Part shown: piece after piece, positions 1,048 to 32,258 of the stretch
How positions within the stretch are numbered: position 1 is the first letter of the stretch
Layout: the number at the start of each line of letters is the position of its first letter
Source: Candidatus Nealsonbacteria bacterium
GTDB lineage: Bacteria > Patescibacteriota > Minisyncoccia > Minisyncoccales > PWPS01
DNA length: 32,258 bases
NCBI GenBank assembly: GCA_003557645.1
Contig: PWNV01000004.1
Location: 1 to 32,258 of the forward strand
Direction of reading: 5' to 3'
Position numbers and translations under genes: made by a program
Notes under the pieces: generated by a model
Database searches by the model: none
What the model was told of the DNA's origin: nothing
Seen by the model: only the letters and a program-made list of their open reading frames with translations

Positions 1048-1075
1048 AGCCGCCCCTAGAAAAGGGGCGGTTTTT
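1046..1075. terminator. Bidirectional intrinsic terminator
   Basis: AAAGCCGCCCCT-AGAAA-AGGGGCGGTTTTT between convergent stop codons. Confidence 0.85.
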
Positions 1076-1118
1076 AAAAGGGATCTACCTCTCTCCAGTC
1101 ATCGGGAAGTGGTGGCCT
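1074..1118 (-). repeat. Conserved C-terminal tail, copy 1 (copy 2 at 32137-32181)
   Basis: 38/45 nt identical to 32137-32181; encodes RPPLPDDWREVDPF*. Confidence 0.9.
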
Positions 1119-2102
1119 TACCGTAATAATCTCCGTATCAGTACAGCTTAACCCGTCTTTTGTAACGGTTAAAGTTACTTCTTTTGGCCCTTCTATCTCA
1201 AAAACTACACTCAGGCTCGCTTCCGAGCTTTCTTCCGGATCTCCTCCTTCAAACGTCCAGCTTCTAGTATCAAAATCGCCTCCACTATCAGAGAAGATAA
1301 CTTCTTTATCTACAATCGGCTTAGAAGGCTCCCAAGTAAAGCTTGAATCCGGGTACTCGGGGAGCGTTTCAAACGTAGTGCTTACCCAGTCCGACCATAA
1401 TCCATGGTCATTTCTTGACCTTATCTCCCAAACATAACTACTACTGTAATCAAGATTAGTGTAAACATACCCTCCTTCAGAACTGGTAGTAAACTCATCG
1501 GCATTTATCTTCATCTCAGATCTACTATATCCTCCTCCAAAATCTTCGTAATCCCAGTTAAGCGTTACTTGCGGAGTGATCTCACAGTAGTCCGGTGGGT
1601 GAGACACGTCTAAATTCGAGACCACCGGTTTTGGATATGGATAATATCCAGCCATATCCCAACTCATCCATCCTAAAAATCCATCTCCAAAAGAATATCC
1701 AGAGAGAGATCCTTCGTCATACAAAATTCCGTAACCCTCCCCGCTAAGAGATATCCACTCCTCAGGATCTAGTACTTTTGCCCATCCGGTTATCTCTCCT
1801 TCCTCCATGTCAAATCTCGGTACACACGGCACCTCAGGACAACCTCCTACATCAGTAAAACTAATCCACCCAAGAGCATCAGACCAAGCTTTTCCACTTA
1901 TATACCCCTCATCATCAATCTCAACTCCGTAGTTAGAGCCACAAAAACTAATCCACCCTACATTATCGGACCAAGCAAAACCAAAGATACTGTCTTCCGA
2001 GCAGTCCGTGTTAACACTACCCACTCTGTTAAAACTAAAAAGAAAAATCCCCATAAAGATTAAAAAAGAGAGGATTAAGATTTCAGTTTTTTTCAAAAAC
2101 AT
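1074..2102 (-). CDS. Secreted protein: GxAWSxxxGWISF repeats, FN3-like and PKD domains, WREVDPF tail
   Basis: Likely start ATG at 2102 (MFLKK + hydrophobic stretch); four Trp/Gly repeats; FN3-like VTLNW...L..SSSY.WEIRSRN..GLWSDW; PKD-like SWTFEGG...KEVTLTVT. Confidence 0.75.
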   Translation of the reverse strand: MFLKKTEILILSFLIFMGIFLFSFNRVGSVNTDCSEDSIFGFAWSDNVGWISFCGSNYGVEIDDEGYISGKAWSDALGWISFTDVGGCPEVPCVPRFDMEEGEITGWAKVLDPEEWISLSGEGYGILYDEGSLSGYSFGDGFLGWMSWDMAGYYPYPKPVVSNLDVSHPPDYCEITPQVTLNWDYEDFGGGYSRSEMKINADEFTTSSEGGYVYTNLDYSSSYVWEIRSRNDHGLWSDWVSTTFETLPEYPDSSFTWEPSKPIVDKEVIFSDSGGDFDTRSWTFEGGDPEESSEASLSVVFEIEGPKEVTLTVTKDGLSCTDTEIITVRPPLPDDWREVDPF

Positions 2103-3031: not shown

Positions 3032-3924
3032 ACATCTATTGATCTTAAGTTTTTAATACGCTCCTCTACCGGAGGATGAGTCATAAAAAGCTTTCTGATA
3101 CGACTCTTCGCCTCCTTCCCTCGAAAGGGACTAACAACATAAAGATGTGCTGTAGCGTCATTTGCTGCCTTGAGCTGGTGAGGATCACTGGAGATCTTCT
3201 CTAAAGCTCTGGCAAGTGCTTCTGGATATCGCGTAGTAAGTGCTGCTGTAGAATCAGCAAGATGTTCTCTTTTACGGGAAATAGCAAACTTCATCACTTG
3301 AGCTAAAACAGGGGCAAGGATGAGGAAAAGGAGAGCACCAGCTAAAACGGCGAGACCAACTCCTCCTTCTCTCTGTCTCATTCCTCCAAAAAACGCCATA
3401 CGGAAGAAGAAATCAGCAATAAGAACAACTACCCCTACCAGCACCACTACCACAGATTGAATAAGAATATCACGGTTTCCGATGTGAGCAAGCTCGTGCG
3501 CTATAACCGCCTCCAGTTCCACTCTTTCCAGCCTCTCTAAAAGCCCTGTGGTAACAGCAATAACACCGTGCTTAGGATCGCGCCCTGTGGCGAAGGCGTT
3601 GGGCTGTTTATCTTCTATCACAAAAAGACGAGGGACCGGAAGACCATTTGTAATCGCCAGATTCTCTGCAATACGATACAGCTCTGGATTGTCATCCTTT
3701 TTTATCGGCGTGGCCTTACTCATTCTCAAGATAATCTTGTCCGAGTACCAGTAAGAGCTAAAACTCATCACCACCGAAATCCCTACCGCCAAGTAGAGTA
3801 TCCACTGCCCTTCAAACACGTAACTTAAAACCCATCCCACGGCCATAATGAGAAGAAAAAATCCAAACAAATAAAGATACGTGCGAAAAATATTCTTTTC
3901 CGCTTCTCTGTATAGTGTTGCCAT
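3028..3924 (-). CDS. htpX: M48 zinc metalloprotease HtpX
   Basis: PNAFATG, HELAH, SRKRE..AD, F.THPP..ERI motifs; four TM segments. Confidence 0.95.
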   Translation of the reverse strand: MATLYREAEKNIFRTYLYLFGFFLLIMAVGWVLSYVFEGQWILYLAVGISVVMSFSSYWYSDKIILRMSKATPIKKDDNPELYRIAENLAITNGLPVPRLFVIEDKQPNAFATGRDPKHGVIAVTTGLLERLERVELEAVIAHELAHIGNRDILIQSVVVVLVGVVVLIADFFFRMAFFGGMRQREGGVGLAVLAGALLFLILAPVLAQVMKFAISRKREHLADSTAALTTRYPEALARALEKISSDPHQLKAANDATAHLYVVSPFRGKEAKSRIRKLFMTHPPVEERIKNLRSIDV

Positions 3925-3927
3925 GTT

Positions 3928-4494
3928 TTAGAAACTTACGTTTACAGGATCTCTTTCTTCTTTATTTTCTATTTCAAAGAAATCCTGCTTTTCAAATCCA
4001 AACATACCAGCGACAAGATTTACCGGGAACATCTCTACTTTAGTATTAATCTCTTTGACGTTGCGATTGTAGAATCTTCTGGAAGCCTGAATCTTGTCCT
4101 CGGTATCCCTAATCTCTTTTTGTAGTTCAATGAAATTTTCTGATGCCTTTAAATCGGGATAATTCTCTGAAACCGCAAAAAGACTCTTTAGTGCGCCCGC
4201 AAGTTGGTTTTCCGCTTCTCCCACTTTCTTGGGATCACCGGACTGCTCTGCGCTCATTGCACTCGCTCTCGCCTTGGTTACTCTTTCAAAAATCTCTCTT
4301 TCGTGAGTTGCATATCCTTTCACCGTCTCTACTAAGTTAGGGATAAGATCATATCTTCTCTTAAGCTGTACGTCTATATCTGCCCAAGCTTCCTTTACCC
4401 TGTTTCTTAAAGTTACAAGGCGGTTATAGGAAAAGACAAGCCAGAGAAGAAGTAAAACAATCAGTCCTATTAAAATATTAACTGGCGTAAACAT
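3928..4494 (-). CDS. lemA: LemA family protein
   Basis: YNRLV..RN.V.EAWADIDVQLKRRYDLIPNLVETVKGY; ENYPDLKA. Confidence 0.97.
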   Translation of the reverse strand: MFTPVNILIGLIVLLLLWLVFSYNRLVTLRNRVKEAWADIDVQLKRRYDLIPNLVETVKGYATHEREIFERVTKARASAMSAEQSGDPKKVGEAENQLAGALKSLFAVSENYPDLKASENFIELQKEIRDTEDKIQASRRFYNRNVKEINTKVEMFPVNLVAGMFGFEKQDFFEIENKEERDPVNVSF

Positions 4495-4525
4495 ATTTTT
4501 GTTAAATTACTTTATTACTTCTTAG

Positions 4526-4554
4526 ATTATAAATCACTTTCGCCATCCTTACAA
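4526..4554 (-). promoter_or_regulatory. Sigma70 promoter for lemA-htpX operon
   Basis: TTGTAA, 17 nt, TATAAT. Confidence 0.75.
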
Positions 4555-4593
4555 GAAAACCGCAAAGAAAACAAGTCCTTCGCGGTTTCTTGT
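4551..4593 (-). terminator. groEL intrinsic terminator
   Basis: Minus-strand stem AAACCGCGAAGGA...TTCTTTGCGGTTTT with G-U pairs and U-rich end. Confidence 0.7.
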
Positions 4594-4606
4594 CTTCTTT
4601 TTCTTT

Positions 4607-6537
<1,931 letters not shown>

Positions 6538-10001: not shown

Positions 10002-11660
10002 ATGAACGAAGAAGACTTAAAAATTATTCCCCTGGGAGGCTTAGGGGAAGTAGGACGTAATATGACGCTGTTTGAGTGGGAAGATAAAGTTCTTATTGTT
10101 GATATGGGATTTAACTTTCCAGAAGAAAGAACTCCGGGAGTTGATTACGTAATTCCCAACATCTCCTACTTAACCAAAAACAAAAAACAAGTATTAGGAC
10201 TTGTTCTTACACACGGTCATTATGATCACATCGGAGCAATTCCTTATCTCATGGAAAAAGTAGGAAATCCTCCTATTTTCGGTTCTCCTCTTGCTTTGGG
10301 AATAACCAAGAAAAGACAAGAAGAGTTTCCAAACAAACCTAAATTAAGAACTACAGAGATAAGCGACGGTTCTAAGATTGAGCTTGGTCCTTTCTCGTTA
10401 GAATTTTTTCACCAAAATCACAACATTCCGGATAATCTCGGTTTTCTGATGGAGACTCCGGTGGGAAACATTGTTAACACTTCCGATTTTAAGTTTGACT
10501 TTACTCCCACCAACGCTCCCGCTACCAGCCTTGAGACCTATAAGAAGATCGCCTCTAAGGGTGTGCTTTTATTAATGTCCGACTCTACTGGTGCAGAGTC
10601 AGAAGGAAAATCGCTCTCGGAAAAAGTAATTCAAGAAAATCTGGAGAAAATATTTCAAAGATCAAAGGGGCGTATTATCTCTTCTACTTTTGCTTCTCTC
10701 ATAAACCGTGTTCAAGATATCATCGCTCTTTCAGAGAAGTACGGAAGAAAAGTAGCAGTTGAAGGATACGGAATGAAAACCAATCTGGAAATTTCTAGAC
10801 AGCTTGGCTTCATTAGGTCCAAGAAAGGGACCATTATTCCTTCAGAGAAAGCCGCAGACTACCCAGATAATAAGATAACCGTACTTTGCACAGGAGCACA
10901 AGGAGAAGGCAACGCCGCTCTCATGCGCATTCTAAGCAAACAACACCGTTTTTTCCAACTAAAAGAAGGAGACACCATCGTTCTCTCTTCTTCCGTAATT
11001 CCAGGAAACGAGCGCGCTGTTCAAAACTTGAAAGACGACATGATACGCCAAGGAGCAGACATTTATCACTCCCAAATGATCGACATTCACGCAAAAGGAC
11101 ACGCCCAAGAAGAGGAACTACAAGAGATGATAAGAATCATGAAACCAAGGTTCTTTATGCCAATTCACGGTCAGTACTCTATGCTGGCAAGTCACGCTAA
11201 GATTGCAGAAGGAGAAGGACTCCCAAAAAGCCGTATCGCTCTTACTGATAACGGGCATGTTATAAGGCTCAATTCGGAAAAACTAAGCATTGATAAAAAA
11301 CCACTCCCTGTAAGTCCAGTAATGGAAGACGGCCTAGGAGTTGGAGATGTGGGAGGAGTAGTTTTACACGATCGTATGGAGCTAGCAGAAAGTGGTATTT
11401 TTGTCATTATCGCCGTTATCGACAAGAAAACAGGTAAACTCAAAAACTCTCCTGACATTATTTCTCGTGGTTTTGTGTATCTTCGGGAATCACAAACCCT
11501 ACTGACAGAAACAAGAAAAAAAGTAATGGAAACCATCAACAAAGAAAAAGGAGGTGATAAAAAGGAAATCCGAGCAAAGATCAAGAAAAGGTTGGAAAGT
11601 TTTCTCTTTAGCAAAACACAAAGAAAGCCAATAGTGCTTCCCGTGATAATCGAACTATGA
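10002..11660 (+). CDS. rnj: Ribonuclease J
   Basis: IIPLGGLGEVGRNM, THGHYDHIG, GAQGE, PIHG; start moved to ATG 10002 because the ORF-track start lies within the tRNA. Confidence 0.95.
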   Translation: MNEEDLKIIPLGGLGEVGRNMTLFEWEDKVLIVDMGFNFPEERTPGVDYVIPNISYLTKNKKQVLGLVLTHGHYDHIGAIPYLMEKVGNPPIFGSPLALGITKKRQEEFPNKPKLRTTEISDGSKIELGPFSLEFFHQNHNIPDNLGFLMETPVGNIVNTSDFKFDFTPTNAPATSLETYKKIASKGVLLLMSDSTGAESEGKSLSEKVIQENLEKIFQRSKGRIISSTFASLINRVQDIIALSEKYGRKVAVEGYGMKTNLEISRQLGFIRSKKGTIIPSEKAADYPDNKITVLCTGAQGEGNAALMRILSKQHRFFQLKEGDTIVLSSSVIPGNERAVQNLKDDMIRQGADIYHSQMIDIHAKGHAQEEELQEMIRIMKPRFFMPIHGQYSMLASHAKIAEGEGLPKSRIALTDNGHVIRLNSEKLSIDKKPLPVSPVMEDGLGVGDVGGVVLHDRMELAESGIFVIIAVIDKKTGKLKNSPDIISRGFVYLRESQTLLTETRKKVMETINKEKGGDKKEIRAKIKKRLESFLFSKTQRKPIVLPVIIEL

Positions 11661-27264: not shown

Positions 27265-29329
27265 TGATAAGATTCAAAAACTCTGCTTCGTTAATAATAT
27301 TTCTTTTTAAGGCTTTCGCCTCCTTAAGCTTGGACCCCGGATTATCTCCTACTACTAGATAGTTTGTGTTGCGAGAAACTGATGATGAAACTTTCCCTCC
27401 TAAATGAGAAATTTTTTGTTTCGCCTCTTCTCTTGTCATCTTCTCAAGACTACCAGTAATAACAAAAACTTTCCCATCAAACTTTTTTTGTGTTTTTTCT
27501 TTCTTTATTACTACTCCCACATCTTTTAACTTTTTAATGAGGTCTCTATTTTTTTCATCTTGGAAAAATTTAAAAATCTGTTTTGCAGTTTTTGGACCTA
27601 CATCAGGAACATTTTCCAGTTCTTCTAAAGAGGCACTTTCTACTTTTTCTAGGCTACCAAAAGCTCTTGCTATATCACGCGCAACACCCTCTCCCACATA
27701 AGAGATTGAAAGTGCTTGCAGAAACCGAGAAAGAGAGATGTGTTTGCTGTTTTGAATAGACGCAACCAATTTCTTGGAAGATAGTTCCGCGAAACGCTCT
27801 AGATGAGTTAAATCTCCTTCGTGAAGCATAAAGAGATCAGCCGGATCAGAGATGATTCCTTCCATTAACAGCTGATCAATAACTTTTTCTCCTAATCCAT
27901 CAATATCAAACCCTTTTTTGGAAACAAAATAACTAAGTTGTTGCCTTCTCTTTCCTTGACAGTTTTTATTAATACAGTACCATCTCGCCTCATCTTTCGG
28001 TCGCAAGACCTCTCCCTCACAAAGCGGACACTTTTTGGGGAAAACAATTTTCTTTTCTTCTCCCTTGCGAAACTCTTTTAATACTTTCACAACACGAGGA
28101 ATAACATCTCCCGCCCTTCCAACTATCACCGTATCTTTTTTCTTTACGCCCAAACGCTTGATCTCATCTTCGTTGTGCAGTGTAGCACGAGATACGGTTA
28201 CTCCTCCAAGAGAAATCGGTTCAAGTAAAGCCACCGGAGTAATCGCTCCCGTTCTTCCTATTTGAAAATGCACGTCGTTTATTGTTGTTGCTCTTTCCTC
28301 TAGTGGAAATTTGTAAGCAATCCCACCACGAGGAGACTTTCCAGCAACTCCCAATACTTCAAACAACTCGTTGTCATTTACAAACACAGCCACTCCGTCA
28401 ATTTGATAAGTGTACCTTTCTCTTTCCTTTTCCGTTTTTCTGTAAAAATGAAAAACCTCAGAGAGATCTCGACAGTACTTTTCACGATCCACTGTTTTAA
28501 ATCCAAGAGCACGTAGGAGAAGATGCTTTTCTTGGTGCGTTTTGGCTCCAAAGGGAGTCACCATTTCTTTTTCTTCTTTGTCCGCTACTAGGTTATAAGC
28601 AAGAAAACCAAGATTGCGGCTTGCAGCAATCTTTGGATCAAGCTGTCTTATTGATCCAGCGGCAATATTCCTTGGATTGGCGTAGAGAGGAAGTCCCATT
28701 TTTTCTCTTTCTTTGTTCTGTTTTAAAAACTCTTTTTTGGAAATAAAAACTTCCCCGTGAACAACAATACTTTTCCCGTCTTTTCTCCATCCAAAGCTCT
28801 GAGAAATTTTCTTTTCTTCTTTAGAAAAACTGCTTGGAGATCGAAGTCGTAAAGGAACTGCTTCTATGGTCTTCAAGTTTTGCGTTACATCCTCGCCAAT
28901 TTTTCCATCACCTCTTGTAGAGCCACTAACTAAAACATCATCTTCATAAACAAGCTCTACCGCTAAACCATCCACTTTAAGTTCACAAAAGTAATCTATC
29001 TTAACTTCGGGAGGAAGGAGACGTTTTATTCTTTTTTCAAAATTACACATATCCTCCTTACTAAAAGCATCTTGGAAAGAGAACATCTCTCTGTAGTGCT
29101 CTACTTTTTCAAACTCATCAAGCGTCTTTCCTTCCACTCTTTGTGTCGGCGAATCGGGAGTTACAAGATCAGGAAAATCGCTCTCCAAATCAAAAAGCTC
29201 TTTTTTAAGAGAGTCCAGTGCATCGGCGGACACCTCCTCTCTGTCGTGAACATGATAGAGATAGCGATAATGATTAATAACTTTCTTGAGATCTTCTATT
29301 CTTTTTTTTGCCCCCTCTTTATTCTTCAT
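27248..29329 (-). CDS. ligA: NAD-dependent DNA ligase
   Basis: ELKVDG, TRGDG..GEDVT.N, ANPRN.AAGS.RQLD, Cys4 zinc finger, HhH, BRCT. Confidence 0.99.
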   Translation of the reverse strand: MKNKEGAKKRIEDLKKVINHYRYLYHVHDREEVSADALDSLKKELFDLESDFPDLVTPDSPTQRVEGKTLDEFEKVEHYREMFSFQDAFSKEDMCNFEKRIKRLLPPEVKIDYFCELKVDGLAVELVYEDDVLVSGSTRGDGKIGEDVTQNLKTIEAVPLRLRSPSSFSKEEKKISQSFGWRKDGKSIVVHGEVFISKKEFLKQNKEREKMGLPLYANPRNIAAGSIRQLDPKIAASRNLGFLAYNLVADKEEKEMVTPFGAKTHQEKHLLLRALGFKTVDREKYCRDLSEVFHFYRKTEKERERYTYQIDGVAVFVNDNELFEVLGVAGKSPRGGIAYKFPLEERATTINDVHFQIGRTGAITPVALLEPISLGGVTVSRATLHNEDEIKRLGVKKKDTVIVGRAGDVIPRVVKVLKEFRKGEEKKIVFPKKCPLCEGEVLRPKDEARWYCINKNCQGKRRQQLSYFVSKKGFDIDGLGEKVIDQLLMEGIISDPADLFMLHEGDLTHLERFAELSSKKLVASIQNSKHISLSRFLQALSISYVGEGVARDIARAFGSLEKVESASLEELENVPDVGPKTAKQIFKFFQDEKNRDLIKKLKDVGVVIKKEKTQKKFDGKVFVITGSLEKMTREEAKQKISHLGGKVSSSVSRNTNYLVVGDNPGSKLKEAKALKRNIINEAEFLNLINEKNN

Positions 29330-29693
29330 GAGTTCTTCTAACTATCCAGATAGCTCTTCTGGTTCCTCTGTGCAGTCCTACAGATTTAATCTCCGTCTCA
29401 TAGTACCAGTCAATAAGAACCGGTCCTTCCTTTTCATACATATAATAAGTGTCTTCTGCAAGTTCATGTTCTGTGTCCCAATCAAGCTCGTCAAAACTTT
29501 CATCATCCCAAGAATACAGGATCTCTTCTATCCCTGTGTCAGCAGCGTAAAAAGCGGTTACCGATTCTCCGATATCTTCAATCATTCTAAGTTGACTGAT
29601 GAACATGTTCGTAGAGGAAAGTCCAAGAATAAAAAGCACTCCCATTATTATAATAGTAAAGTATAAAGCTGATCCTTTTTGTTTTTTATTCAT
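29319..29693 (-). CDS. PilX-like minor pilin (small)
   Basis: QKG|SALYFTII lacking Glu5; AFYAADTGIEE PilX_N-like motif. Confidence 0.8.
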   Translation of the reverse strand: MNKKQKGSALYFTIIIMGVLFILGLSSTNMFISQLRMIEDIGESVTAFYAADTGIEEILYSWDDESFDELDWDTEHELAEDTYYMYEKEGPVLIDWYYETEIKSVGLHRGTRRAIWIVRRTHEE

Positions 29694-29695
29694 AA

Positions 29696-30277
29696 TTAAG
29701 GGGTTGCAAAATCAATACCTCTTCTTGTAATAGTGGTCTGAATATCAAGCTCAAACCAGTCTTGATCTTCCTCTTTTGCGGTAAAGAGAACTGTTATCGA
29801 CGGTTGTATTTTATTAATATCCTTTTCTGCTTTTCCCTGATCTTCTTCTGGGTCTATAATCGTTCTAATCTGAAAGTTTTCAATAACGATATTAGAGGAT
29901 GTCAAAAATCCTTCCACTGTTTCTTCCCCCTCAATCACTATTTTCACTCTCTCATCTTCCTCAAAAAAACTAATACACCTCCCTTGATAATCGAAGAATT
30001 TCAATACTTCATTTTCTAGATTGTAAGTATAATCCTCGTATCCAATACAACTTCCATCGATGTCTTTTCTTGCCATTCTTGCTAGTCTGCTTATGTACTC
30101 CATCGCATAGTTTATCTCTCCCAGATTTCTTTGTGTAGTGAAAATTCTTTGTTTTACTCGAAGATTGGTAATAAGTGTTCCTGTAAGCATTACGATTATA
30201 AGTGAAAATATAAACATCGACACCAGCACCTCTACTAGCGTTATTCCTTTTTCATTTTGAAATATTTTCTTAGTCAT
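29696..30277 (-). CDS. PilW/GspJ-like minor pilin
   Basis: EKG|ITLVEVLV class III signal; third position in cluster. Confidence 0.8.
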   Translation of the reverse strand: MTKKIFQNEKGITLVEVLVSMFIFSLIIVMLTGTLITNLRVKQRIFTTQRNLGEINYAMEYISRLARMARKDIDGSCIGYEDYTYNLENEVLKFFDYQGRCISFFEEDERVKIVIEGEETVEGFLTSSNIVIENFQIRTIIDPEEDQGKAEKDINKIQPSITVLFTAKEEDQDWFELDIQTTITRRGIDFATP

Positions 30278-30779
30278 ACCATCTGTATAATTTAAGGTAA
30301 GCCTCTCTTCTCTCTTCTTCTCCTCTTTCTTCCCAAAAAACAGTGACCGTTACAAGTAAATAATCTTCTTCTGCGGTTTCTACTCTCTCAACATTTACTT
30401 CTCTTCTAAATCCAGAGTAATCTCCTGCGTCGTCGTGGCTGAAGAGACCGTCTCCATCAACGTAAAGCCTAAAAAAGTTAGCTCCTAAACCACCTTCAAT
30501 TTCTTCAGAGTTGTAATCAATTCTTCCTGTTCCCTCCATCTCGTCTACTATATCTTCCCACCCCTTCCCTTGAAGCCATCCCGAATCCCTAACTCTTCTA
30601 ACAGATTCAACCCCCTCTTGTGTTAGGTAAGAAGCTGTTAACTTATCAGCTAAAGGCATCGTAGATGTAAAAGCACTGGTAATCATGGCAACAGAAGCCA
30701 CCACTCCCGTGGAGATCACGCCAATAACAACTAAAAGCTCGATAAAAGTAAGTCCTTTTTGTAGTTTTTTTAATCTCAT
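30270..30779 (-). CDS. PilV/GspI-like minor pilin
   Basis: QKG|LTFIELLV; A.YL.QEGVE.VR; VTVTVFW. Confidence 0.8.
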   Translation of the reverse strand: MRLKKLQKGLTFIELLVVIGVISTGVVASVAMITSAFTSTMPLADKLTASYLTQEGVESVRRVRDSGWLQGKGWEDIVDEMEGTGRIDYNSEEIEGGLGANFFRLYVDGDGLFSHDDAGDYSGFRREVNVERVETAEEDYLLVTVTVFWEERGEEERREAYLKLYRWYD

Positions 30780-31315
30780 AGATGCTTAATGCTTACAAGG
30801 CCGACACTATTAACAATGATAATCATCTTAGGATCGTTTTCATAAGCATACCCTATCTCTATCTCAACTTCATCTACTTCTTCTTCGCTAAAGCGCACCG
30901 TCGGATCAGGAGGAGAAAAAGTAACCTCTAACGGATCTTCTGGTGAGAACACAACAACTTCTCTCTCCAGTTCTTTTTTTCTAATTATAACTCTTCTTAT
31001 CTCCTCATCTCCGCCACCAGTTGGAACTATTCGAGTTTCTGCAAACAATTCATAATTATCACTCTCAAACCTTATTCCGTATCTTCTCCCAGGAACAAAG
31101 TCATACAAATTCTCATCTATCTCAAAATCAACCTCTTTAGCAGAGATTGACATACCTCTTACTCTTTCTATCTCTTTTGCTATATTATTTACTTCTTCTT
31201 CCAAGAAAATATTTCTATTAAAAATCCCATAACCAGGAAAAACAAGCACCGAAACAATTGCTATTATCCCTATAGCTACCATTAACTCTATAATACTAAA
31301 TCCTTTTGTGCTCAT
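30776..31315 (-). CDS. FimT/FimU/GspH-like minor pilin
   Basis: TKG|FSIIELMV; C-terminal I.VN..G.V. Confidence 0.8.
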   Translation of the reverse strand: MSTKGFSIIELMVAIGIIAIVSVLVFPGYGIFNRNIFLEEEVNNIAKEIERVRGMSISAKEVDFEIDENLYDFVPGRRYGIRFESDNYELFAETRIVPTGGGDEEIRRVIIRKKELEREVVVFSPEDPLEVTFSPPDPTVRFSEEEVDEVEIEIGYAYENDPKMIIIVNSVGLVSIKHL

Positions 31316-32082
31316 ATAATAAAACTAAAATACCAATCTACTAAAAAATCTCCAAAAAAATAGGAAAGAATTGTACCGGTAATAAGAAAGGGTCCAAAAG
31401 GTATCTCACTTTTCATTCCCTTTTTTTTCAGTGTTAATAAGATTAATCCTATTATAGCACCAAGAGAAAAAGAAAGAAAAAGGCCAACGATGATTTCAGG
31501 AAATCCAAGGAAAAGACCCATGAAAATAACATATTTAACATCACCAAACCCCATCCCTTTTCCTTTAGAGAGATAGAAAATAAGAAAAAAGAATACAAAC
31601 GCTCCCAGAGCGGAAAAAACAGGATAAAGAAGATTATTTACATCTCCTTCTGTGAAAAAATGGAAAAAGCGATAAAGGAGAGCTATTCCTATAAGAGAGA
31701 AAACGGCAAAATCAGGAATAATATAATACTTTAAATCATAGACAAAAACAAAGGAAAGCAAAGACAGAACAAAAAACAAATAGAAAAGTGTAGCAAGAGA
31801 AAGTGCAGGAACGATAAATAAATAAGAAGACAGAAAAACCAACCCAACAGCAAGCTCTACCAGAGGATACTGTACTGATATTTTTTCTTTACAATACCGG
31901 CATCTTCCAAATAAAAAAACCCAACTTAAAAGAGGAACCAGGTCCTTGGCAAAAAGACTGTGCCTACAGTGAGGACAAAAAGATGTGCCTCTCATGCTTT
32001 GCTCGGTATAAACGCGATAAACGGCACAATTAATAAATGAACCGATGGCAAGTCCTAGTAAAAAAACAAATAGAAAATCCAT
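31312..32082 (-). CDS. pilD: Prepilin peptidase / N-methyltransferase
   Basis: GSFIN...YR, CPHC...CRYC, YDLK, GMGFGDVK, IPFGPF; likely start ATG 32082. Confidence 0.96.
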   Translation of the reverse strand: MDFLFVFLLGLAIGSFINCAVYRVYTEQSMRGTSFCPHCRHSLFAKDLVPLLSWVFLFGRCRYCKEKISVQYPLVELAVGLVFLSSYLFIVPALSLATLFYLFFVLSLLSFVFVYDLKYYIIPDFAVFSLIGIALLYRFFHFFTEGDVNNLLYPVFSALGAFVFFFLIFYLSKGKGMGFGDVKYVIFMGLFLGFPEIIVGLFLSFSLGAIIGLILLTLKKKGMKSEIPFGPFLITGTILSYFFGDFLVDWYFSFII

Positions 32083-32088
32083 ATCACA

Positions 32089-32117
32089 AGAATAACAAAA
32101 AAACACTGCCTCTTCAA
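32089..32117 (-). promoter_or_regulatory. pilD operon promoter, leaderless configuration
   Basis: TTGAAG, 17 nt, TATTCT with TG extension, 6 nt, ATG(32082). Confidence 0.65.
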
Positions 32118-32129
32118 TAGAAGGGCAGT
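32097..32129 (-). terminator. Intrinsic terminator after the partial PKD gene
   Basis: ACTGCCCTTC-TATT-GAAGAGGCAGT followed by G and seven T on the minus strand. Confidence 0.8.
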
Positions 32130-32136
32130 ATCTCTC

Positions 32137-32181
32137 TTAGAAAGGATCCACTTCTCTCCAGTCATCGGGAGGTGGTGGACG
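32137..32181 (-). repeat. Conserved C-terminal tail, copy 2
   Basis: 38/45 nt identical to 1074-1118. Confidence 0.9.
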
Positions 32182-32258
32182 AACGCTAACTGTCTGTGTG
32201 TTTTCGCAGGATTCAGTTGCACTTGAAACCTCCAGTGTCACTTCTTTGTCTCCTTCTC
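32137..32258 (-). CDS. Partial (3' end only) PKD-domain protein with WREVDPF tail; absent from ORF track
   Basis: Manual translation ...EGDKEVTLEVSSATESCENTQTVSVRPPPPDDWREVDPF*, homologous to the end of 1074-2102. Confidence 0.85.
   Translation of the reverse strand, partial: EGDKEVTLEVSSATESCENTQTVSVRPPPPDDWREVDPF

Follow-up and report, generated by a model that had tools for sequence, protein, structure and literature searches.

A conserved C-terminal tail on PKD-domain proteins of a Candidatus Nealsonbacteria genome as a candidate docking peptide for the type IV pilus tip

The window analyzed here, a stretch of 32,258 bases, is an entire contig (C11) of a Candidatus Nealsonbacteria genome that comprises 596 kb in 22 contigs. 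Two of its genes, both on the minus strand, encode PKD-domain proteins that end in nearly the same peptide. The first is found at the window end (32137..32258), where the 3′ end of a gene, 39 codons and a stop codon, is cut by the contig end; the minus-strand reading of the last 122 bases gives EGDKEVTLEVSSATESCENTQTVSVRPPPPDDWREVDPF before the stop (32137-32256), and the open reading frame (ORF) continues past the contig end, so that the 3′ part alone is present. Its last 15 residues, VRPPPPDDWREVDPF (32140..32184), are composed of a Pro-rich linker, a W-R-E-V strand, and a D-P-F end. The second gene (1074..2102) encodes a full-length protein of 342 amino acids with a signal-like N-terminus, four GW(I)SF repeats, an FN3-like domain, a PKD domain, and the tail VRPPLPDDWREVDPF (1077..1121); this protein ends in EGPKEVTLTVTKDGLSCTDTEIITVRPPLPDDWREVDPF (over a longer stretch, TVRPPLPDDWREVDPF). 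The consensus of both tails is VRPP(P/L)PDDWREVDPF. It is proposed here that the tail is probably a pilus-tip docking peptide (a "plug", or C-beta strand) that works like the plug of the PilC/PilY1 adhesins. This proposal is based on the motif, a strand missing from a minor pilin, a modelled complex, a free tail in the monomer, recurrence in relatives, export, and the position of the window-end gene by pilD.

The two tails are identical at 14 of 15 residues. At the DNA level, 7 of the last 45 nucleotides, stop codon included, differ, and six of these differences fall in residue-preserving codons, leaving one change (P/L); both counts are exactly those given by an initial annotation of this DNA, which had suggested a docking tag for interchangeable tip adhesins. 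The preceding region is more divergent, as had also been stated: among the 24 residues before the tail, 11 are identical and 13 changed, and 36 of the 72 nucleotides differ. The genome contains four tail copies instead of the two described initially, three of them truncated by contig ends. The third copy (C10:1-516, plus strand) encodes 172 amino acids ending in DDWREVDPF, and the fourth (C7:2395-2979, minus strand) encodes 195 amino acids ending in DDWQEVDPF. Since the downstream neighbours of the three partial copies differ (pilD, a 631-aa ORF, and an 830-aa ORF), these copies represent separate loci. Homology among the copies spans the FN3-like and PKD region and is far from uniform: the identity of the 1074-2102 protein amounts to 39.5% with the C7 fragment (195 aa aligned) and 42.9% with the C10 fragment (154 aa aligned), versus 78.6% between the C7 and C10 fragments. 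Thus, the tail is a conserved island in diverged paralogues, and the concern that the proteins might simply be uniformly similar recent paralogues does not apply.

An origin of the shared end from recent duplication or gene conversion, not from functional selection, has also been considered. The last 107-124 nucleotides of the window-end copy are 95-97% identical to those of the C7 and C10 copies, and all three partial copies are located at contig breaks, which is typical of repeated DNA; gene conversion may account for the homogeneity of these three. However, it already fails for the window-end/1074-2102 pair, whose tails differ mostly at residue-preserving positions and in which the PKD region of the 1074-2102 protein is only ~40% identical. 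In addition, the motif recurs on unrelated DNA in 43 of the 121 genomes of the order. As a general account of the tail, this explanation is very improbable.

The N-terminus of the 1074-2102 protein (MFLKKTEILILSFLIFMGIFLFSF) has no G-F-T-L-x-E motif, so the protein is not a prepilin; it is signal-like by the hydrophobicity rule that was used to judge export throughout. Its sole Pfam match is PKD_4 with 23 bits, under the cut-off of 27 (PKD families PF18911 / PF00801), and the C7 and C10 fragments score 31 and 30 bits, above that cut-off. In the AlphaFold2 (AF2) monomer model, which has an overall predicted local distance difference test (pLDDT) value of 87.7, residues 255-329 form a beta-sandwich with 318-329 as the last PKD strand, and residues 330-342 are coil according to DSSP. 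Folding of the tail back into its own PKD domain, which had been named at the outset as a finding that would speak against docking, is therefore not observed in the model. Residues ~25-150 form a four-fold repeat, G(F/Y)AWS.N.GWISF, and this N-terminal module is conserved in many Patescibacteria surface proteins (P0004-P0058). The GW-repeat module had no Pfam or NCBIfam match and no usable match in the protein atlas, and a Foldseek search against PDB returned only FN3/PKD tandems, with no lead for the module.

The monomer model also bears on the idea that the tail is the conserved end of one PKD subfamily, serving as a structural cap or stabiliser without any partner. The tail has a fairly high pLDDT in the monomer (~74-82), higher than that of the PilC plug, which was reported to be "very low", and a PKD-like domain nearly always precedes it, so PKD and tail could be one inherited module. 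On the other hand, a cap is difficult to reconcile with the DSSP coil after the last PKD strand, with the presence of tails on P0019, P0029, and P0037, which have no Pfam PKD match at E<=0.01, or with a conservation far above that of the preceding domain (14/15 versus 11/24). The same peptide is also found at the end of non-PKD pilins, as described below. A purely structural role is consequently regarded as quite unlikely.

The genes following the window-end copy belong to a pilus locus. Downstream of a hairpin, the order is prepilin peptidase, FimU/GspH-like, PilV-like, PilW-like, and PilX_N genes, beyond which ligA, rodA, rpoB, rpoC, ftsK, and recA are located; Pfam and NCBIfam matches agree with the earlier placement of one tail copy directly upstream of pilD and a FimU/PilV/PilW/PilX-like set. 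The pilus genes are all on the minus strand. The prepilin peptidase PilD (31312..32106, likely start ATG at 32082) matches A24_N_bact (92.5 bits) and Peptidase_A24 (57.6 bits). It is followed by a FimU/GspH-like minor pilin of 179 aa (30776..31315; N_methyl 24.1 bits and a weak GspH match), whose gene has a fixed position after pilD in relatives, a PilV/GspI-like minor pilin of 169 aa (30270..30779; type_IV_pilV N-terminal match of 26.8 bits, under the cut-off), and a PilW/GspJ-like minor pilin of 193 aa (29696..30277; N_methyl 28.9 bits). The last gene of this FimU-PilV-PilW-PilX-type set encodes a PilX/PilK-like tip minor pilin of 124 aa (29319..29693; PilX_N PF14341, 26.3 bits against a cut-off of 25.5), which is the proposed acceptor of the tail and whose position is kept in 31 of 40 fetched pilD loci. 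In 39 relatives, whose loci were read by ORF length, order, prepilin pattern, and BLAST to the window pilins and not by a family scan, the pilD neighbourhood mostly consists of PilB/PilT/PilC-size ORFs, one to three prepilin-like ORFs, pilD, four minor pilins, and a LigA-sized ORF; the slot before pilD mostly holds prepilin-like genes following the PilB/PilT/PilC-size ORFs.

Between the tail gene and pilD, folding revealed a strong terminator-like hairpin with a U-run (32097..32137, minus strand; -23.2 kcal/mol, z -6.3, none of 200 shuffles as stable), which the consensus terminator scan did not list (its stem is bulged). This hairpin may be an attenuator allowing expression of the tail gene above that of the tip genes.

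The mechanism with which the tail is compared has been described in three 2026 papers on PilC/PilY1 adhesins of diderm bacteria, which, like the other publications below, are cited from excerpts. It was reported that PilC/PilY1 complete the PilK/PilX sheet with a strand formed by their last ~10-12 residues and that this plug strand is needed for pilus function and, when fused to PilK, is partly or fully sufficient (PMC13533445, PMC13711793, bioRxiv 10.64898/2026.09.18.752573). The last ~10 residues add the strand to PilK and are cradled by PilJ (PMC13533445), and in PilC/PilY tails, Arg, Glu, and hydrophobic residues come after a conserved Trp (PMC13711793). Hence, the WRE motif and the strand added to PilK/PilX, which the initial annotation had invoked, are both in print. 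In type II secretion, Bacillus subtilis Com, and the Vibrio cholerae type IVa pilus (T4aP), the PilK homologue carries the strand itself (PMC13533445).

A comparison of two PilX-like pilins within the present genome shows that the acceptor is short of such a strand. A second pilus locus encodes a PilX-like pilin of 136 aa (C17:11121-11531) that ends in NPKILVWSWQEVGDY (...WSWQEVGDY). When the operon-type PilX-like family (A4) was aligned with the second-locus, or cis, type (A5) by hhalign (probability 96.9, E 2e-10), residues 2-118 matched residues 8-117, placing the last operon-type strand on the penultimate strand of the cis type, which has 19 residues beyond the alignment, ISDINPKILVWSWQEVGDY. 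The AF2 model of the cis type (pLDDT 76.8) has a terminal strand at 124-132 that is hairpinned on strand 111-121. Of the 19 cis-type PilX-like ORFs recovered from relatives, 15 terminate in W-x-E-[VITK] and another one in WEDV; the last residues are ...SWQEVADF in the small ones and ...SW(R/K)EIE in those of 411-605 aa. The 27 aligned operon-type orthologues, by contrast, end in ...RRAIEIxx without such a strand. Based on the profile alignment, the AF2 strand, and the orthologue ends, the operon PilX-like acceptor lacks exactly the element that its paralogues possess, and this element has a tail-like sequence. Comparing the cis and trans types inside a single genome is new to this analysis, as are the pattern counts given below.

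A four-chain complex of the PilV-like (residues 10-169), PilW-like (12-193), and PilX-like (8-124) pilins with residues 250-342 of the 1074-2102 protein was modelled by ESMFold2 with own alignments. The complex scored 0.63 (runs 0.65, 0.61, and 0.63), compared with 0.42 for the best control, in which the PilW-like chain was replaced, and 0.00 for each of two unrelated partners; among 80 solved complexes, 58 attain the pass mark, as do 2 of 110 mismatched pairs, counts that are only roughly applicable here. The runs had at least 93% of contacts in common, with a partner pLDDT of at least 79. In the modelled interface, tail residues 327-342 lie antiparallel to the last strand (112-123) of the PilX-like pilin, and the tightest pairs (116-337, 114-339, 118-335, and 120-331) follow an antiparallel register. 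The tail is also contacted by PilW-like residues 64, 67-68, 97, and 186-187 and by the PilV-like C-terminus (167-169). The geometry of this model is that published for the plug, which indicates likeness rather than binding. A pilin interface, whose absence would have counted against the earlier tip-docking interpretation, is thus predicted, and that interpretation is supported at the level of modelling.

In the proposed mechanism, tail proteins would be exported by the Sec pathway as ordinary non-pilins, and their last ~13-16 residues (Pro-rich linker, W-R/Q-E-V strand, and D-P-F end) would be free in the monomer. The tail strand would pair antiparallel with the last strand of the PilX/PilK-like pilin (29319-29693), which is without a terminal strand, and the PilW-like and PilV-like pilins would then cover the added strand. 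The protein would thereby be seated on the pilus-priming tip complex and be carried outward with the tip of the pilus. Same-tailed paralogues could compete for one socket, which would give alternative tips. The motif, its recurrence, the strand missing from the acceptor, and the occurrence of that strand in paralogues are observed; the interface comes from the model, and loading in the cell, a role in pilus assembly, and host attachment are inferred.

With regard to recurrence, among the 55 non-self homologues found for the full-length protein, most of which were retrieved via the N-terminal GW-repeat module, 27 have the motif [WFY]x[ED][ILVFM] no more than 5 residues from the C-terminus, 26 of them with Pro just before it; the internal frequency of the same proteins predicts 0.018 per protein, i.e., ~1 in 55. 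The back-translated DNA pattern P-x-W-x-E-[VI]-x-P-x-stop had 48 matches in the 43 genomes mentioned above and 7 matches in its reversed control. Phe is the final residue in 31 of the 48 matched strings, which were read by eye, at a position left free in the pattern. All 30 fetched tail loci have an ORF of at least 82 aa that terminates with the motif; GW repeats are present in 9 of these ORFs, and complete ORFs without them were found at L046, L048, L062, and L068. A hydrophobic signal-like N-terminus was detected in 26 of 27 and in 10 of 13 complete tail proteins, and a prepilin signal in none. In one relative (G031), identical tail-coding 30-mers lie 52 kb apart on a complete-looking contig (C1:94517-94546 and 146241-146270), so this organism also has duplicated tail genes.

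Another reading of the tail is a sorting or retention signal for another machine, such as a cell-wall or S-layer anchor, a protease/transpeptidase, or a secretion step, with no pilus role. Conservation of the motif at the very end of Sec-exported surface-type proteins would fit such a signal, as would the location of most tail genes away from pilus genes and the existence of order-level dialects, which sorting signals also have. In the LPXTG and PEP-CTERM signals, however, the motif is followed by a membrane helix and a basic tail, whereas the proteins considered here stop 3 residues after W-R-E-V with neither, and no NCBIfam model matches the tail proteins. Such a signal would also leave unexplained the W-x-E-V-x-D-F cis end of PilX-like pilins and the missing strand of the operon PilX-like pilin, and the complex model speaks against it. 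It is therefore considered an unlikely explanation of the tail.

In addition to the pLDDT of the tail and its nearly constant PKD neighbour, several results weigh against docking at the pilus tip. Pilus-gene linkage is seen for 1 of the 4 tail copies of this genome, and even there the terminator-like hairpin parts the window-end gene from pilD. A tail-like protein occurs in the operon at 1 of 39 pilD loci of relatives; in G058, a 748-aa PKD protein ending in PLPEYKEVAPTE is encoded between pilD and the minor pilins. A prepilin ORF is present within ±1.5 kb at 1 of 30 tail loci, approximately as expected from the density of such ORFs; in G059, one tail gene is followed by three prepilin ORFs. 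These frequencies are no more than chance and argue against a simple operon logic. Of the proteome checks proposed in the initial annotation, those on recurrence of the motif and on export had positive outcomes, and that on linkage to pil genes was essentially negative. It was reported that Kingella PilC genes are likewise unlinked to the minor pilin operon (PMC13711793, in the excerpted text).

The P-x-x-W spacing of this genome is rare in the order, with 6 matches spread over 3 of 121 genomes and 4 of the 6 in this one. As a further adverse point, neither spacing pattern had a match in two other searched genomes of the same family. In a sample of the phylum outside the order, the long tail form gave 8 matches in 6 of 401 genomes versus ~17 in the control; the long form is confined to the order. 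At the ORF ends of this genome, the relaxed 4-residue motif is not enriched (21 versus 16.4 expected among 680 ORFs); a 620-aa protein ending in APIWREFFESFL, which matches it, was taken as a chance occurrence. As for the complex, its score is the model's own confidence, obtained with own alignments that are outside the calibration of the tool, and the pass may partly derive from learnt GspIJK-like tip complexes with a cis strand.

Compared with PilC/PilY1 of Neisseria, Kingella, Acinetobacter, Pseudomonas, and Myxococcus, as far as the excerpts describe them, the tail proteins are likewise Sec-exported non-pilins with W-R-E-hydrophobic in the last ~10-12 residues, a strand modelled on the PilK/PilX sheet and covered by PilJ/PilW, and one tail across paralogues. 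A tail of ~10-12 residues with Trp, charged, and hydrophobic residues, which characterizes PilC/PilY1, is found in ...DDW(R/Q)EVDPF, and addition of the strand to PilK/PilX is seen in the model only. On the other hand, the PilC/PilY1 beta-propeller (IPR008707/PF05567), a conserved C-terminal domain with a Ca-binding site, is absent, and a PKD domain precedes the tail; the whole genome, 98.5% complete, yielded no match to PF05567 at E<=1. The tail proteins are therefore not members of the PilY1 family, even though they would act in a PilY1-like manner. Other differences are the size of the sole complete copy (342 aa versus >100 kDa), the Pro-rich linker before the strand, the conserved x-P-F end after it, and the Patescibacteria lineage.

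A plug donor that is not a PilY1 homologue has a precedent in MshQ of the Vibrio cholerae MSHA pilus, whose extreme C-terminus is predicted to provide the strand for the PilK homologue (PMC13533445, as excerpted). MshQ is a single operon-encoded protein of ~1200 residues located beside minor pilin genes (PMC13533445), unlike the tail proteins, which are several, mostly unlinked paralogues with a motif recognizable across the order. The second-locus PilX-like pilin of C17, which ends in a cis strand, resembles GspK/XcpX, PilK of B. subtilis Com and V. cholerae T4aP, and CpaL of Tad pili (PMC13533445); such strand bearers of the GspK/XcpX/CpaL type differ from the tail proteins in being pilins or pilin-like subunits. 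In type IVb pili, a short terminal peptide of a secreted non-pilin cargo binds tip minor pilins, but this peptide is N-terminal, occupies a homotrimer cleft, and serves secretion instead of display (bioRxiv 10.64898/2026.09.18.752573, in the excerpted part). Adhesion-type modules may also be fused directly to pilins, unlike the non-covalent attachment that the tail would provide. Streptococcus sanguinis PilB and PilC are modular minor pilins of this kind, and the type IVb cargo proteins referred to above include CofJ and TcpF. Adhesion-type modules presented at the tip are also described for Saccharibacteria PilX1/PilX2 (excerpts of PMC12206443). Homologue P0047 has the GW-repeat module of the tail proteins inside a PilV-like prepilin (N_methyl 21.6 bits, cut-off 21.2), which places the same cargo on a pilin. 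Another homologue, P0036, has an N-terminus that is PilX-like by eye only. Monoderm T4aP were reported to have no PilC/PilY1, a PilI-like minor pilin only, and modular pilins instead (bioRxiv 10.64898/2026.09.18.752573); in the excerpted text of one 2026 paper, the plug is coupled to the propeller domain and modular pilins are assigned to monoderm pili. No description of such docking tails in Patescibacteria was found in the literature searched.

Finding and holding a host is a poorly understood part of the life of ultra-small episymbiotic bacteria, for which type IV pili are the best-supported candidates (PMC12206443, in its excerpts). The tail may mark the candidate attachment proteins of the cell. 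If it is a plug, the mechanism that the 2026 papers describe in diderm PilC/PilY1 adhesins would be uncoupled from the PilY1 propeller and would be present in Patescibacteria beside the cis form; a ten-residue label could pick candidate tip proteins from thousands of uncultured genomes, and the question could be tested with peptides and recombinant minor pilins. A broader and more tentative reading, which we regard as possible but doubtful, is that the PilK/PilX of the order's main pilus is deliberately one strand short and that any Sec-exported protein ending in P-x-W-x-E-[VI]-x-P-F supplies it, the tagged set being an interchangeable tip repertoire. In this genome, the set would include four tagged proteins, on GW-repeat and probably FISUMP-FN3 modules; pilus assembly might wait for one tagged protein, and tail dialect and PilX/PilW socket would evolve together. 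Candidate host-recognition proteins could then be read from their last ten residues. With respect to the interchangeable tag claimed initially, the motif, the acceptor, and the model favour it, and the part concerning "different secreted proteins" holds only partially, as the copies share FN3 and PKD and three of the N-terminal parts are lost.

The missing part of the window-end gene may be approached through other contigs. Contig C14 contains T2SSE-type ATPase genes, PilM/N/O- and PilC-size ORFs, and a 159-aa pilin gene, directly followed by a secreted ORF with Fib_succ_major (FISUMP) and FN3 that exits the contig start. The orientation is compatible with joining the C14 start to the C11 end; therefore, the window-end gene probably encodes signal peptide-FISUMP-FN3(n)-PKD-tail and is inserted between pilA and pilD. 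This inference is weakened by a second FISUMP ORF, on C5, that ends in the same FN3 repeat: the secreted FISUMP ORFs of C14 (3-992, minus strand) and C5 (3-1115, minus strand) both leave their contigs in ...VSCDATSQSRINVSWSSSSGATGYRVYRCS. It seems to be because of the FN3 repeats that the assembly broke within the tail genes. When metagenome contigs were searched with an exact 40-base sequence spanning the junction of tail gene and pilD, no match was obtained and the missing 5′ part was not recovered, and a word-indexed search with the C10 fragment (without its last residue) found no longer relatives. The PKD and tail profile (A6) was swamped by giant multi-PKD proteins in two large protein libraries, which made it uninformative on the tail; the few matches with a named source were from Bacteroidetes-type bacteria.

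The full-length gene at 1074-2102 has housekeeping neighbours (DUF134, zinc-ribbon protein, M48 peptidase, LemA, and GroEL/ES). A second copy of the groEL-lemA-M48 peptidase stretch (window 3053-5992), 71% identical, is present on contig C6 (2988 bases); either the stretch was duplicated and has diverged, or DNA of a related organism was binned into this genome (contamination 4.25%).

Pili are near-universal in the order (105 of 121 genomes), and this genome has 11 N_methyl matches, 5 T2SSE-type ATPase matches above the cut-off, and several pilus loci. In six loci of relatives (L092, L097, L101, L103, L105, and L106), the PilX-like proteins, 411-605 aa long, start with a PilX-type N-terminus, continue with a large middle part, and close with the conserved sequence ...SGP.GGW.V.SW(R/K)EI(E/Q). 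Cargo seems to have been inserted before their cis terminal strand, as in CpaL and cyanobacterial PilX; a large insert before the cis strand is the feature shared with CpaL (PMC13533445, as excerpted). Two very large prepilins of 881 and 526 aa (C17:7079-9724 and C9:676-2256) are candidates for modular pilins and probably carry grafted modules. In addition, two adjacent minor pilins of 210 and 231 aa (C17:9743-10375 and 10381-11076; L075) have near-identical Cys-rich ends, ...DYCISIGY.GG.CRQNSN.C..NDE.HE.DGD.FCPGTGGQNVCCCN, which look like a shared knot-like C-terminal domain.

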